Of a stretch of 64,000 nt of DNA, positions 1-64,000 are shown piece by piece. The stretch lies in assembly GCA_031268335.1 (NCBI GenBank), contig JAIRXG010000025.1:744-64743 (forward strand), given 5' to 3'. A program made the position numbers and the translations under genes. The number at the start of each line of letters is the position of its first letter. Within the stretch, counting starts at the first letter, position 1. Origin of the DNA: Campylobacteraceae bacterium (GTDB lineage: Bacteria > Campylobacterota > Campylobacteria > Campylobacterales > Campylobacteraceae). Under the pieces are notes generated by a model. The model searched no databases and had not been told where the DNA came from. It was given only the letters and a program-made list of their open reading frames with translations.

Positions 1-894
1 TCCTAAAAGAGGGTCTATTTCGTATAAGTTACTACCAAGATGTGTCGCAGCATATAATTTACCATTTAAAAATGACATACCATAAGTAAGAGTGCCTTGC
101 AGGTTTTCAATCTTCTTAATCCTGCTGTATTTCCAGTTTCCCGTGGTGCTTGGTTCTACCTTTACTATCCAAAAATAATCGCCACCACTTGAACCAAATG
201 GAGGCTCGTCATCTATTCCTACTAAGAGATATGCGTTTCCATCCGCATCTATAGCCATATCAGAAGCCACATATCCGTTGTAATTAGCATTACTGCCCTG
301 TATTCTATCGCTCTCCGTTTTTGGCTCTATTTTGCCGCTTTTTGTAAAACTGACAGCATTACCGCTCGTTATAGGCGTAGCCAGCATCATGCGAAAATTG
401 TTATTATCAGTATTTAAATCTTGCAATTCTCCGCCCGTAAAATATATCTGCCCTGTTATTTGGTTTACTTCTCCGCCCGACCAATAATCAAATGAAGTGC
501 TGCCATGAAATTCTACTGTAAATAGACCATTCCCATCTTTTATGGGGTTGGGAGTGCCGCCGTTATATATATATCTTACCTTGCCGCCACCTAAAGAAGA
601 CCAATCCCAATGAAACATGGTCAATATACCATTCTCTTTTGCAAAAGGTCCTAATGCTATAGTTTCCCCACGCAAATTACCCATTGAATACAAATCTATT
701 TGGTTTGTATTTATAGTAGGATTACTAAATTTATATACATTACCTGAATCATCTGTTCCATATAAAGTATTACAGTCATAAGAAATAGCACGCAGCTCTG
801 CAAATGAGAATATTAGTGCAAAAGCAAAAAAGAATTTTGAAAAAAATCCATGAGAAAAACAACGAATGTTTTTCGGGTCTTTTGGCGGCTTCAT
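1..894 (-). CDS. Secreted surface protein, N-terminal part only (ORF runs off the left edge). Paralog of the N-terminal beta-propeller-like domain of 6908..10714
   Basis: My translation of the minus strand from ATG (complement of 892-894) gives MKPPKDPKNIRCFSHGFFSKFFFAFALIFSFAELRA..., open for 298 codons down to position 1. It shares blocks with the 1268-aa protein (DCNxLY, IALGP, WSGGEVNQxTGxIYF, DMAIDADGNAY, GMSFLNGxLY, YEIxPLxG). It is absent from the ORF track because no stop lies in the window. Confidence 0.75.
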   Translation of the reverse strand, partial: MKPPKDPKNIRCFSHGFFSKFFFAFALIFSFAELRAISYDCNTLYGTDDSGNVYKFSNPTINTNQIDLYSMGNLRGETIALGPFAKENGILTMFHWDWSSLGGGKVRYIYNGGTPNPIKDGNGLFTVEFHGSTSFDYWSGGEVNQITGQIYFTGGELQDLNTDNNNFRMMLATPITSGNAVSFTKSGKIEPKTESDRIQGSNANYNGYVASDMAIDADGNAYLLVGIDDEPPFGSSGGDYFWIVKVEPSTTGNWKYSRIKKIENLQGTLTYGMSFLNGKLYAATHLGSNLYEIDPLLG

Positions 895-1712
895 AGCATA
901 CCTTGTGTAAAGAAAAATTTAATCATAATATACCTTATGTAAAGAAAAGTTTAAATTAAAAATTATATTTGACTTTTGAAGATTTTTTAACAACATATTG
1001 TTACTAAAAAGTTACTCTAAACAAATATTTTTTGATAAGTATATCATATTTTATTTATAATTTCCATAATTTTATATAAATATCAATATAAAAAAAATGA
1101 AATATGCATTTTTAAGTCTTATGCATGAAGGGTAAAAAGAATAGTTGTATTTTAAACTTTTTTCTCTTTGATATTGCTAAATATTTGCCTAAAACAAAGA
1201 GTGAAAGTGAAATTTATTTAAGATTATTTTTTATAAAAAAATAACAAGTTTTTGAGCGTTCAAAATTTTAATTTAATGTGGAAATTAAAGTAAATGATAT
1301 TAGGTAATTTCTTTGATTATTTTCCTTTTTGAAGAAGAAAATAATTTTAAAAATATATGAAAATTAATTAAAAAATTTAAAATTTACGAGGATAGATTAA
1401 TTTTTTTGACATGAATTTTATACTTATATCAAAGTCGCTTTTATGAATTTATCTATTGTTGAGGAATGTGTGTCTTGCGTATTGTCTAATGTTTTATATA
1501 AATTTTCCATACTAACGGTTATATCTTTGATAAATTTATATTCGACGTAAATAGCAGATTTATAATGTAAAAATTCTTAAAGTATTGTGTCTTAATTATT
1601 TGTTTTGATATAACAAAAAGATAGGATAAAAGACTATATGTGATTTGAAGGCAACATCTATTTTGGCTCAACACATATGATAAAACATAAGCAAAGATAT
1701 AAAATATTTCAA

Positions 1713-1991
1713 TACATGTAATTATTCAAACTAAAACTTTGTACATGTATATGATTTTTGAAAATCGTACATGTATTAATGTTTGAAGTCAAAGATATAT
1801 ACATGCAATAGATTGAAAAGTTATTGTAATCTCAAAACTCTATACATTCATTACTCAAATAAAGCATGTGAGATGAGATTAGAAGTTTATACATGTATTA
1901 TATATGGTAAAAGGTTTCAAAGGCAAATTTTAACACAACGCTTGTTTTGGTTCAACAAAAACGGATAAAAACTTCATATTCGTTACATGTA
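1713..1991. repeat. Array of TACATGTA-core repeats in the AT-rich spacer downstream of proC and upstream of the 1..894 gene
   Basis: Full octamers start at 1713, 1742, 1768, 1890 and 1984. Degenerate copies are TACATGCA at 1800 and GCATGTGA at 1864. Several copies are followed 5-7 nt later by TTTGAA-like sequence. Spacings are 29, 26, 32, 64, 26 and 94 nt. Confidence 0.7.
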
Positions 1992-2024
1992 AATGTTATT
2001 TTGTTGTTTTTTTCAAAACTTCGC

Positions 2025-61428: not shown

Positions 61429-61456
61429 ACTTTCTACATGTAAGGACTTTGCGCTA

Positions 61457-62515
61457 TCAAGGAAGTCTGATTATGGTGATAGTTGCTCTTGATTTTAATG
61501 TGTCAAAATACTCTTTTAATATATCGTTTTCTTGTTTTGAAGAGATTTTAGTCATTATGAAATTTTTTACTTGTTCATACGGCAATATACTCTCGTTATT
61601 TTTGGCTTCCATGAAAAATCTTACAAATCCATCTCTTGTTTGAATTATCGGCGTTATAGCGTCAATATTTGTTTGCGAAAGCATGTTTATTATCTTAGGA
61701 TCAGAATCCAAGCTTGAGATGTTTTCTGAAAATACCATCACGTTTTCACTTGAAATCGTGAAAGAATCTTTTTTCGAAAGACTTTTGTCAGACATAATAT
61801 TTTCATGCAAGCTATCATTAGATAATTTGACCACGATGTTGCCATCATGTGTATTCGCATCATATACATTATCTTGTTCATTAATATCGATGCTTGCCGA
61901 TTCGTCGATTTGCATAGCGTTATCTTGTATTTGTTTGATATCGGCTTGTGTCGACTCTTCGCTATTTTTGGATTTTACGGATATATCTTCCAAATCTTGC
62001 GCATTTTGGCTCTCAAATCTTACGACATCAAAACTTTCAAATCGCGTAAACTCTTTTTTATTTTTATTGTAATACAACAAAAATTCATCCTCATTAGCGG
62101 CTTGAAATTTACTGCTTAAAACATATTGATATAGTTTTTCTTGCTGCATTTTTCGCTTTAATTCGGCTTTATAAGTATCCGAAGTAATACCTTCATTGCT
62201 TAAAGCTTTATAAAATGCTTGAACACTTAAATTGTTTTTTGCGGCAATTTCATTCATTTGTTGATTTATATCGTAGTCGCTTACTTGTATATTCATGGCT
62301 TTTATTTGAGAAAGCTCCAATTTTTCTCTTATCAATATATCCAAAGCCTCTCTGGTTTGCATATTGAACTGTTTTGAGAGAGCATATATCTCATATATGG
62401 TCACAGGCTCGTTGTCAACCACCACCGATACTGCATCAACAAGTGCGGCGCTTACATGTGAGGAAGCCAAAAATATGGCGCACACAGCAGAAGTTAAACT
62501 GTTTCGTAGTTTCAC
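61457..62515 (-). CDS. Periplasmic SurA-like chaperone (Cj1289-like) with a long acidic/Ser-rich insertion
   Basis: 352 aa with a signal peptide (AVCAIFLASSHVSA). It has a SurA-N-like domain. Its position between accC and gltX matches C. jejuni (from memory). Confidence 0.7.
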   Translation of the reverse strand: MKLRNSLTSAVCAIFLASSHVSAALVDAVSVVVDNEPVTIYEIYALSKQFNMQTREALDILIREKLELSQIKAMNIQVSDYDINQQMNEIAAKNNLSVQAFYKALSNEGITSDTYKAELKRKMQQEKLYQYVLSSKFQAANEDEFLLYYNKNKKEFTRFESFDVVRFESQNAQDLEDISVKSKNSEESTQADIKQIQDNAMQIDESASIDINEQDNVYDANTHDGNIVVKLSNDSLHENIMSDKSLSKKDSFTISSENVMVFSENISSLDSDPKIINMLSQTNIDAITPIIQTRDGFVRFFMEAKNNESILPYEQVKNFIMTKISSKQENDILKEYFDTLKSRATITIIRLP

Positions 62516-62660
62516 TATAATCCTTTGTTAAGTAAAAAATCATTATAATCACACATTTTTAGAATTTGAATTCTAACATTTTTTTAGTATCAAAAAAATT
62601 AAAGTGAAATCTAAGTTCGTACGAGAAATTTAATTTTTAAAAAAGACAGGGACTTTTATT

Positions 62661-64000
62661 ATGATAATTACTAGATTCGCGCCTTCTCCAACAGGCTATC
62701 TTCACATAGGAGGGTTAAGAACGGCGCTTTATAATTATCTGTGGGCAAGACGAAACGGCGGAAAGTTTTTGCTTCGCATAGAAGATACCGATCTTAAAAG
62801 AAATTCTCTTGAAGCCGCGCAAGCCATTAAAGAAGCTTTTGAATGGACAGGGCTTTCGTATGACGGAGAGATAGTTTATCAATCTCAAAGATTTGATTTA
62901 TATAAAGAGTATGTAAAAAAACTTTTGAACGAAGATAAAGCTTACTACTGCTATATGAGCAAAGAAGAGTTAGATGCTTTGCGCGAAGAGCAAGTAGCCA
63001 ATAAACAAAGACCAAGATATAACGGAAAATACAGAGACTTTAAAGGAATTGCGCCGATAGGAGTAGAACCTGTAGTGCGTATAAAAGCGCCTTTAAATGG
63101 AGAGATAATTTTTAATGACGGCGTGAAAGGTCGTATCAGCTTTAAAGCAGAAGATATTTTAGATGATTTTATCATAGCAAGAAGCGATGGCACGCCTACA
63201 TATAATTTGACAGTTGTTATTGACGATGCGCTTATGGGCGTAACAGATGTGATAAGAGGTGACGACCATCTCTCAAATACCCCAAAACAGATAGTGATTT
63301 ACGAAGCTTTGGGATTTAAAGTACCGAAATTTTTTCATGTTCCCATGATAAACAATCCACAAGGCAAAAAACTCTCAAAAAGAGACGGCGCAATGGACGT
63401 TATGGAGTACAAAAACATGGGCTTTTTGAGCGAAGCTCTTTTGAATTTTTTAGTGAGACTTGGCTGGAGTTACGGCGATCAAGAGATATTTTCTTTGAAA
63501 GAGATGATAGAGTTTTTTGACCCTAACAATATAAATGCTTCAGCTTCATCTTACAATCAGCAAAAGTTGGAGTGGCTTAACGCTTGTTACATCAAAAATG
63601 CTACTTCAGCAAGGCTTTGGCAAGAGGCTTTAAACTTTAAACTTGACATAAGAGACAATAAGAATGCCGAACTACTGGCAGATATGTTAAGAGAGCGGGC
63701 GAAAACTATAGTACAGCTTGTTGAAATGACGAATGCCATATTAAGTGAGCCTCAAAATTATGAGCAAAAGGCGATTGAAAAATTTATAACAAAAGAGAGC
63801 GTCTTATATCTTAAAGAGTATTTGAATATACTAAGCAAAAGCAAAGATTTAGAGTTTGCAAATGATTTTGAAAATGTAACAAACGAATTTTTAGAAAAAA
63901 CCGGACTAAAATTAAAAGATATAGCGCAACCCATTAGAATTGCACTTGTCGGAAGCAGCGTAAGTCCATCAATATTTGAAGTGATGAGTGTTATCGGATA
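62661..64000 (+). CDS. gltX: Glutamyl-tRNA synthetase (5' part; ORF continues beyond the window)
   Basis: My translation from ATG 62661 gives MIITRFAPSPTGYLHIGGLRTALYNYL, which contains the HIGH motif, and KLSKRDG (KMSKS) appears later. There is no stop before 64000, so it is absent from the ORF track. Confidence 0.93.
   Translation, partial: MIITRFAPSPTGYLHIGGLRTALYNYLWARRNGGKFLLRIEDTDLKRNSLEAAQAIKEAFEWTGLSYDGEIVYQSQRFDLYKEYVKKLLNEDKAYYCYMSKEELDALREEQVANKQRPRYNGKYRDFKGIAPIGVEPVVRIKAPLNGEIIFNDGVKGRISFKAEDILDDFIIARSDGTPTYNLTVVIDDALMGVTDVIRGDDHLSNTPKQIVIYEALGFKVPKFFHVPMINNPQGKKLSKRDGAMDVMEYKNMGFLSEALLNFLVRLGWSYGDQEIFSLKEMIEFFDPNNINASASSYNQQKLEWLNACYIKNATSARLWQEALNFKLDIRDNKNAELLADMLRERAKTIVQLVEMTNAILSEPQNYEQKAIEKFITKESVLYLKEYLNILSKSKDLEFANDFENVTNEFLEKTGLKLKDIAQPIRIALVGSSVSPSIFEVMSVIG

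Follow-up and report, generated by a model that had tools for sequence, protein, structure and literature searches.

A hyper-abundant palindrome centred on CATG in a Campylobacteraceae genome fragment and in Sulfurospirillum-type relatives

Background

Why should one palindrome of eight nucleotides recur 27 times in 64 kb of bacterial chromosome, inside genes as well as between them? The question is raised by a 64-kb stretch (35% G+C) from a Campylobacteraceae bacterium (assembly GCA_031268335.1, contig JAIRXG010000025.1, positions 744 to 64,743), here called the window, in which the octamer TACATGTA is built on the hexamer core ACATGT; the full form of the word in core Sulfurospirillum is the 10-mer TTACATGTAA. 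A preliminary description of this DNA had reported the octamer as over-represented, above all in non-coding DNA, and had listed four mechanisms without choosing among them. Here, we find that TACATGTA is the window lineage's form of a hyper-abundant iterated palindrome that is common to Sulfurospirillum and several other Campylobacterales. Our tentative reading, which we hold with somewhat less than even confidence, is that the word may be a methylation-linked signal of self-recognition, uptake or recombination centred on CATG.

Results

Excess of the octamer in the window

Exact counting gave 27 copies of TACATGTA in the window, a density of 0.42 per kb. Dinucleotide-preserving shuffles gave 0.75 copies on average and at most 3, and order-2 and order-3 Markov models predict 1.1 copies (analytic expectation), an excess of about 24-fold. 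Against the order-3 null, no 8-mer of the window is more over-represented than TACATGTA and no 6-mer more than ACATGT (51 copies, 0.80 per kb, compared with 0.07 per kb in 93 motif-free Campylobacterota loci). The one-off words TACATGTG and CACATGTA are present 8 and 5 times, and the same-composition isomers TCATGA, TCATGT and ACATGA 10, 13 and 5 times. The preliminary description had given 27 octamers, about 51 hexamers and about 13 one-offs, which proved exact; it had rightly called the isomers far rarer (estimates of about 8, 13 and 4), and all the octamer starts it listed were correct except 5694, which should read 5684.

The simplest account of such an excess is an artefact of base composition, of codon or amino-acid usage, or of copies of a mobile or REP-like (repetitive extragenic palindromic) element. 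Coding preferences lend it some support: 10 of the 14 copies lying wholly within called genes read as His-Val (CAT GTA), and both CAT and GTA are common codons. Against this stand the Markov expectations and a codon-aware null, under which, given the dipeptides and the codon usage of the window, CAT-GTA should encode 5.7 of the 25 His-Val dipeptides and ACA-TGT 2.2 of the 12 Thr-Cys dipeptides; the observed numbers are 19 and 8, a codon-pair excess for TACATGTA of 3.3- to 3.6-fold. Codon usage does not account for the excess of TACATGTA, as had been suspected for its intergenic part.

The excess is, moreover, strongest in non-coding DNA. On a curated gene map built from Pfam and NCBIfam matches, non-coding DNA and gene edges, which together amount to 7.8 kb or 12% of the window, hold 14 of the 27 copies and coding sequence holds 13, giving densities of 1.80 and 0.23 per kb, respectively. 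In that non-coding DNA, the isomers attain just 0.13-0.39 per kb. The earlier estimate that roughly half of the octamers are non-coding, and the comparison with the isomers that it called for, are both borne out by these figures.

Comparison of the 25 nt on each side of the window copies revealed no common sequence and nothing conserved beyond 8-10 bp. A repeat scan detected no repeat family, the copies clustered at 895-2024 yielding merely short local similarities. Since the flanks are unrelated, TACATGTA is not a miniature inverted-repeat transposable element (MITE), a REP sequence or another repeat element; the word is free-standing, not a piece of a longer repeat. A REP- or MITE-type repeat is ruled out by the absence of extended conservation (at least 20-30 bp) and by the mostly intragenic location of the copies in relatives (see below). 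An artefact of composition, codons or repeats was thus tested and rejected, and we regard it as extremely improbable.

Scans for tRNAs and Rfam families gave no matches in the window, which means that the clusters in non-coding DNA do not correspond to known RNAs, and a terminator scan that included the 895-2024 cluster found no terminator-like hairpins at the copies. The divergent promoter gaps of the window contain no copy of TACATGTA, which argues that it is not an ordinary regulon site. The location of most copies in coding sequence or after stop codons likewise speaks against a transcription-factor regulon; when extrapolated to a genome of 2-3 Mb, the density implies on the order of 1000 sites, compared with tens for a regulon.

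A restriction-modification target was likewise ruled out, because such targets are avoided and the word is 24-fold enriched, a distinction that the preliminary description had already drawn. CATG overall is not avoided in the window (160 vs 181 expected). Restriction-avoidance footprints of other words are present in the same DNA: GATC occurs 33 times (202 expected), GGCC 8 (94), GTTAAC 0 (5.4) and GGCGCC 1 (8.8).

A ten-nucleotide word in the relatives

The genes of the window are campylobacterotal housekeeping genes (proC, lon, rpsF-ssb-rpsR, holA, rnr, ilvC, dprA, ruvX, tatBC, queA, lysC, hobA, holB, folP, ligA, ribF, a cmoA-like gene, hrcA-grpE-dnaK, accD, recO, fabD, accC and gltX). The LigA of the window is 83-86% identical to those of termite-gut 'Campylobacteraceae' (Campylobacterales) metagenome-assembled genomes (MAGs), about 65% identical to those of Sulfurospirillum and just 50-53% identical to those of Campylobacter species, and a metagenome scan found no LigA closer than 67% identity. 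An exact look-up gave no identical LigA on record, and no sequencing runs turned up for the window's organism. Judged by these identities, the nearest relatives of the window are the termite-gut Campylobacterales MAGs, followed by Sulfurospirillum, and not Campylobacter proper, to which the preliminary description had attributed it.

For comparison we used a set of 80 genome loci around ligA (L001 and so on). Octamers number 5-14 per 10-22 kb in fourteen Sulfurospirillum-type loci, and at least nine further metagenome loci are word-rich too; the loci of Campylobacter, Arcobacter, Sulfurovum, Helicobacter and the outgroups contain 0 or 1 octamer each. The 14 loci (215 kb) together hold 123 octamers (0.57 per kb, 35-50 times expectation), and TTACATGTAA, the 10-mer that forms their consensus, is present in 82 perfect copies (200-290 times expectation). 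The hexamer, previously taken for the core unit, is mere remainder of TTACATGTAA in these relatives. Octamers with one mismatch are not enriched there.

Almost all octamers of the 14 loci (117 of 123) are intragenic. Non-coding preference, one of the features first remarked on, therefore holds for the window and fails for the Sulfurospirillum-type loci; it is a peculiarity of the window's genome. The frames TTA-CAT-GTA (Leu-His-Val) and ACA-TGT (Thr-Cys) are used almost equally in the 14 loci, and the stop frame TAC-ATG-TAA is nearly absent. Spacing between octamers is near-random (coefficient of variation 1.07), with some excess of close pairs.

Of the NCATGN contexts, ACATGT is the least frequent in the pooled 1.3 Mb of the 93 motif-free Campylobacterota loci when judged by an order-1 null (observed/expected 0.34). 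Under order-3 and maximal-order nulls the deficit is only mild (95 vs 113-129 expected). We found no publication describing the palindrome in the literature.

Maintenance of the word at the DNA level

Carrier genomes hold the word intact at the DNA level, in and between genes, even where the encoded protein is altered. In the Sulfurospirillum-type loci, to which our retention test applies, octamers of L007 are retained at orthologous codon positions of coding sequences of five other species in 39 of 42 cases. The background for this comparison is 8-16% identical same-frame 8-mers, at 70-78% nucleotide identity and about 50% identity of third positions. In cmoA, two perfect copies 20 nt apart are kept in seven species (Table 1) while neighbouring synonymous sites vary, and the motif-poor sister L008 encodes the same Thr-Cys and His-Val residues with different codons. 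The cmoA orthologue of the window (31057-31773) and those of the termite MAGs read LVCE...KYA at the site of the twin copies and have no copy there.

LigA illustrates the effect on the protein. Alignment columns that hold Leu-His-Val or Thr-Cys in carriers hold KSI, RNI, ASV or PVC in other species; at column 455, the step from AAA AGT ATT (KSI) to TTA CAT GTA (LHV) comprises six nucleotide and three amino-acid changes. The Thr-Cys dipeptide is over-represented 2.4-fold (77 vs 32 expected). The replacements in LigA and the excess of Thr-Cys argue that the word is imposed on proteins and not derived from them. A larger ortholog test found motif-encoded His-Val and Thr-Cys dipeptides in just 5-11% of orthologues from motif-free genomes. 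This test is weakly discriminating, as non-motif His-Val dipeptides are equally unconserved, so that only the Thr-Cys class and the LigA and cmoA cases discriminate.

Lineages with, without and losing the word

Word-rich loci are scattered over the LigA tree, with the poor or empty lineages L008, L010, L001 and L002 nested among them. Sister lineages retain copies at background level (0 of 8 in L008 and 2 of 10 in L010), and the former sites are relics with one to three mismatches; in sister genomes that lost the pressure, the word decays by point mutation. The outer flank of the octamer differs between clades: core Sulfurospirillum has T there in about 95% of copies, which makes the 10-mer, and the L022/L046/L057, L028 and L151-155 groups have T or C (YTACATGTAR). 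In the window the flank is near background (T in 44%), and full decamers make up 19% of the octamers, compared with 67% in the loci of the 14 relatives.

Is the word in the window then simply a relic? On this account, which is independent of mechanism, the maintaining system is gone from the window's genome and the 27 copies are those not yet mutated away. Several observations fit. Transition-type one-offs are enriched 3- to 13-fold in the window, unlike in the Sulfurospirillum-type loci (CACATGTA/TACATGTG 13 times, TGCATGTA/TACATGCA 10 times and TATATGTA/TACATATA 9 times). At position 29473 of the window, in ligA, orthologous sites form a decay series of TTACATGTAA in L011, TTACATGTGA in the window, TTACATGCGA in L001 and TTGCGTGTGA in L002. 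The closest relatives, L001 and L002, have lost the word, the nearest MAGs showing only a faint octamer excess (6 vs about 1 expected in 94 kb), and the perfect to one-off excess of 26:22 in the window fits only about 10% divergence per site since loss.

Two observations tell against a mere relic. The octamer is 24-fold enriched although its flanks are near background, and a 10-mer decayed that far would leave no octamers, which implies that selection acted on the octamer itself until recently. Of the window's copies, L001 has 0 of 2 and L002 has 1 of 3, both at 84% nucleotide identity to the window, which argues that the window lineage kept the pressure much longer than they did. We therefore consider a relic unlikely, and we infer from the background flanks and the loss in the closest relatives that the octamer was itself the favoured unit in the window lineage until recently, under a pressure weaker than that in Sulfurospirillum. 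A weak pressure that wins only in unconstrained DNA would explain the non-coding excess of the window.

Positions of the copies

The copies in the window and the related features of other loci are given in Table 1. The copies noted earlier just downstream of proC, of the nitroreductase gene and of accC, the degenerate copies past the cmoA-like gene and grpE, and those fused to the ligA stop and the MFS (major facilitator superfamily) start all proved to lie where described.

Table 1. Copies of the palindrome in the window, listed without strand, and features of other loci that bear on it (ORF, open reading frame)
Feature	Position	Context
TACATGTA	1713..1720	first of five-copy cluster in 1.1-kb AT-rich non-coding region 895-2024
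TACATGTA	1742..1749	same non-coding cluster of 895-2024
TACATGTA	1768..1775	same non-coding cluster of 895-2024
TACATGTA	1890..1897	non-coding cluster of 895-2024; the only ORF there is a dubious one of 61 aa
TTACATGTAA decamer	1984..1991	33 nt 3' of proC stop
TACATGTA	5684..5691	in lon, frame TTA-CAT-GTA (Leu-His-Val)
TACATGTA	10907..10914	non-coding gap between rpsR and 1268-aa ORF
TACATGTA	12414..12421	31 nt 5' of rpsF start
TACATGTA	12543..12550	upstream region of rpsF
TACATGTG one-off	12684..12691	rpsF upstream cluster
TTACATGTAA decamer	12740..12747	3 nt past nitroreductase stop
TACATGTA	21425..21432	in radical-SAM gene, Leu-His-Val frame
TACATGTA	25827..25834	interval between lysC and hobA
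TTACATGTAA	26432..26439	in holB-like gene; L011 site perfect, termite MAGs at least one transition off
TACATGTG one-off	28026..28033	common to L001
TACATGTG one-transition copy	29473..29480	in ligA; part of ortholog decay series
TTACATGTAA	29868..29875	in ligA, alignment column 548; same site in L002, L022 and L046; TTGCATGTAA in L001
TACATGTA	30179..30186	joined to ligA stop; ligA ends TAC ATG TAA at 30179-30187
TACATGTG one-off	31797..31804	23 nt past cmoA-like stop
TACATGTA	33291..33298	in DHH phosphoesterase gene
TACATGTT one-off	36454..36461	23 nt past grpE stop; orthologous site of L058 is a perfect TTACATGTAA
TACATGTA	37839..37846	in dnaK; same-site copies in L003, L005 and L058
TACATGTA	39286..39293	non-coding (dubious 80-aa ORF), past thioesterase gene
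TACATGTA	39527..39534	non-coding gap 39358-39937
TTACATGTAA	45362..45369	in inositol-monophosphatase-family gene
TACATGTA	45786..45793	in recO
TACATGTA	46652..46659	in MFS transporter gene
TACATGTA	47964..47971	covers MFS start codon (CAT on + strand, 47966-47968)
TACATGTA	50022..50029	in unknown gene 49414-50241, Thr-Cys frame
TACATGTA	50666..50673	in PP-loop ATPase gene
TACATGTA	52486..52493	in fabD
TACATGTA	61435..61442	convergent gap: 47 nt past accC stop, 14 nt past surA-like stop
cmoA twin copies	L006:8389-8416; L007:14455-14482; also L009, L033, L041, L065, L067	one in Thr-Cys frame, one in Leu-His-Val frame
Orphan methylase	L046:819-1814; L057:1-954; L220:10001-10996; L221:5500-6495	no nuclease or controller gene adjoining
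Methylase cassettes	L223, L224/L225, L226, L228, L229/L230, L231, L233; about position 10001 in each	differing chromosomal places

Eight of the non-coding copies fall into two tight clusters, at 1713-1991 and, upstream of rpsF, at 12414-12747 (five copies in 280 bp and four in 335 bp), which could reflect a local binding function. The first cluster lies in a 1.1-kb non-coding region (895-2024) of 21% G+C flanked by proC and an unknown, secreted-looking gene, and its start-to-start spacings are 29, 26, 122 and 94 nt.

These clusters also bear on the possibility that an abundant, sequence-specific chromosomal protein binds the word, which would serve either a nucleoid organiser or, as a Chi-like marker of 'self', a defence or recombination nuclease, with selection keeping each site. 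A palindrome suits a dimeric binder, and in the Sulfurospirillum-type loci the enrichment is confined to the perfect word. A viral scan for paired decamers further showed that phages use TTACATGTAA as the core of 14- to 18-bp operators clustered between genes, so proteins that read TTACATGTAA exist. What weighs against a chromosomal binder is the number of sites: 0.4-0.6 per kb, or on the order of 1000 per 2-3 Mb and mostly intragenic, is far above the numbers for matS, SlmA, Noc or parS. Promoter association is lacking, the spacing of the sites is near-random, and we identified no candidate protein. We judge such a binding site to be quite unlikely.

The phage operators themselves were seen in IMG/VR contigs (L112, L127, L097, L104, L108 and L111/L120) as intergenic arrays of longer palindromes with the same core, for example ATCTTACATGTAAGAT and CTTTACATGTAAAG. 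The arrays are a separate, phage-regulatory phenomenon.

The gaps 31774-32631, 39358-39937 and 58414-58933 of the window are long and AT-rich (24-28% G+C), without ORFs, tRNAs or Rfam matches. Large ORFs without a convincing family match are present at 6908-10714 (1268 aa), 54965-57349 (794 aa), 57379-58413 (344 aa) and 1-894 (more than 298 aa); the 1268-aa ORF contains degenerate copies of the word only, and the 794- and 344-aa ORFs contain none.

A methylase of the NlaIII family

The word-rich L046/L057/L220/L221 lineage encodes a D12-class N6-methyladenine (m6A) methylase of the NlaIII (CATG) family between holB and folP, within the hobA-holB-folP-ligA operon (Table 1). The corresponding site of the window (27014-27017) is empty, holB and folP overlapping directly there. 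The search for a methyltransferase that the preliminary description had proposed thus turned up an orphan enzyme in one word-carrying lineage and none in the window. Going by the specificity of this family, at least one carrier probably has m6A on the central CATG.

Campylobacterota abound in homologues with 70-75% identity; one of them is named 'Modification methylase NlaIII' in its source. Seven of the eight other contexts that we inspected are mobile cassettes with a second N6/N4 methylase and a small helix-turn-helix protein (controller), and an IceA-family (NlaIII-like) nuclease gene was called in six of these seven, the exception being L229/L230. In H. pylori, IceA1 is an NlaIII-like nuclease acting on CATG. 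Some of these cassettes also carry GmrSD- or HEPN-type genes. The cassette loci are motif-free except for a weak signal in L224. Because the family occurs at 72-75% identity in motif-free genomes, both in full restriction-modification cassettes and, alone, in L232, an NlaIII-family methylase is not sufficient for the word, and we rejected the methylase alone as its cause; a flank-reading component beyond the methylase would be needed.

CATG is not avoided in the word-rich loci and is nearly eliminated in some motif-free relatives. It is almost absent from L005, L015, L043, L047, L056 and L064, none of which carries the palindrome (1 vs 60 expected in L005, 0 vs 41 in L056 and 2 vs 82 in another of these loci). 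This elimination is consistent with active restriction of the NlaIII/HpyI type in those genomes.

An orphan methylase could act without any role in uptake, through a bias of repair or mutation, as Elhai's model has it for highly iterated palindrome 1 (HIP1) of cyanobacteria (PMC4390886): the methylase would mark the word, and a repair system reading the mark would convert near-copies and protect perfect ones. The slight depletion of one-mismatch octamers in the 14 Sulfurospirillum-type loci (73 observed vs 79-93 expected, 0.8- to 0.9-fold) is in line with this, as is the presence of the orphan enzyme in a word-rich lineage. One-step patch repair is, however, unable to make the up to six nucleotide changes that some copies needed (LigA column 455). 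The C-to-T neighbour TATATGTA is not specifically depleted, and m6A methylation comes without a deamination-repair logic. To our knowledge, the Campylobacterota studied so far also lack MutS1/MutL mismatch repair, which we count against a repair bias. Overall the data argue against a simple one-step repair bias, as they do against a promoter regulon, and we rate repair or mutation bias as unlikely. Among the four mechanisms listed originally, the data count against the one-step form of repair bias; uptake, a methylation-linked bias and an abundant binder are all compatible with the data.

A possible self-recognition system

We return to the reading that we favour, that of a methylation-linked signal of self-recognition. 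The word would be what a sequence-specific DNA-handling system recognises, and lineages would gain, lose and retune that system. In its likeliest form, an orphan NlaIII-family methylase would place m6A on the central CATG and a separate reader would see the flanks of the word; mark and reader together would label DNA as 'self', to be favoured in uptake or recombination, and molecular drive and selection would then spread copies and preserve them. The pressure may be weaker or recently relaxed in the window's genome, with copies persisting mainly in non-coding DNA and at stop and start codons.

Two analogies stand behind this reading. The orphan methylase CtsM of C. jejuni marks RAATTY with m6A, and DNA so methylated is acceptable for natural transformation. 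Methylated HIP1 boosts natural transformation (bioRxiv 10.1101/2024.09.10.611283), and HIP1 abundance co-varies with the DNA-uptake machinery (bioRxiv 10.64898/2026.06.24.733823).

Several points weigh against self-recognition. The orphan methylase occupies the holB-folP position in one lineage only, so its link with the word comes from a single clade, and an apparently solitary copy of the methylase (L232) lies in a motif-free locus. On the Pfam/NCBIfam map of the window there is no gene for a methylase, for restriction or specifically for uptake; the window does have dprA and recO, neither of them competence-specific. Our search of the literature found no documentation of competence in these organisms, and the known uptake sequences are non-palindromic. 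Finally, whether the pressure still acts in the window's genome is inferred from internal patterns only.

Significance and comparison with known systems

Hyper-abundant short words are rare, with a handful known: the uptake signal sequences (USS) of Pasteurellaceae, the DNA uptake sequences (DUS) of Neisseriaceae, HIP1, and Chi/KOPS. The function of HIP1 is still under study after 30 years, and the word described here would add a second iterated palindrome unrelated to it, with the target of a known methylase family at its centre. Cultivable Sulfurospirillum carry the word, and the natural on, off and decaying lineages and dialects offer a comparative handle on how such a word is written, read and lost. 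The word could help to tell native from acquired DNA in these genomes. Should it act in transformation, it might become a tool for genetic manipulation of the organohalide-respiring Sulfurospirillum, and if the self-recognition reading is true, the cultivable species would allow identification of the reader and writer proteins.

The word resembles DUS and USS in several respects. Its density of 0.4-0.6 per kb falls in the same order of magnitude as theirs, it occupies the least costly reading frames, and copies lie just past stop codons; amino-acid changes are imposed at variable positions, clades have their 'dialects', and copies decay where the system is lost. The differences are that our word is a perfect palindrome without orientation, that no inverted pairs form terminators, that strong signals come without an enrichment of one-mismatch copies, and that no uptake receptor is known here.

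RAATTY, with its methylase CtsM, is likewise a short palindrome from the same phylum. It is, however, a degenerate hexamer, common by composition and not hyper-enriched, whereas our word spans 8-10 bp and is enriched 24- to 290-fold. The NlaIII and HpyI (iceA-hpyIM) restriction-modification systems target the CATG at the centre of the word, and the orphan methylase of L046/L057 is 70-75% identical to the methylases of the cassettes; restriction-modification targets are avoided, whereas here a CATG word is enriched and no nuclease stands beside the orphan methylase.

A close parallel is HIP1 (GCGATCGC). The word is a palindrome of about 8 bp, at least 10-fold above Markov nulls in the window, present in coding and non-coding DNA and not explained by codon usage. 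By this description it belongs with the highly iterated palindromes, and it is an analogue of HIP1, not a member. The likeness to HIP1 that the preliminary description had proposed is upheld by maintenance at the DNA level, by occurrence across related genomes and by enrichment in place of avoidance. The two differ in sequence and phylum, and no second nested methylase is known for our word. Its flank preference varies by clade (8-mer, Y/R-flanked and 10-mer), its spacing is near-random where that of HIP1 is quasi-periodic, and its copies in the window concentrate in non-coding DNA. What the two share is a palindromic octamer in tens- to hundreds-fold excess in coding and non-coding DNA, positions conserved between species beyond neutral expectation, and loss in some lineages. 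Nested in each is also a 4-bp target of a D12 (Dam-class) m6A methylase family, GATC in HIP1 and CATG here, and at least one lineage of those studied here has an orphan methylase that would act on it. With low confidence, we suggest that Sulfurospirillum-type Campylobacterales may use TTACATGTAA/TACATGTA, depending on its methylation, to recognise DNA as their own in uptake or recombination, and that the word may thereby be a second, independent HIP1-like system in another phylum.

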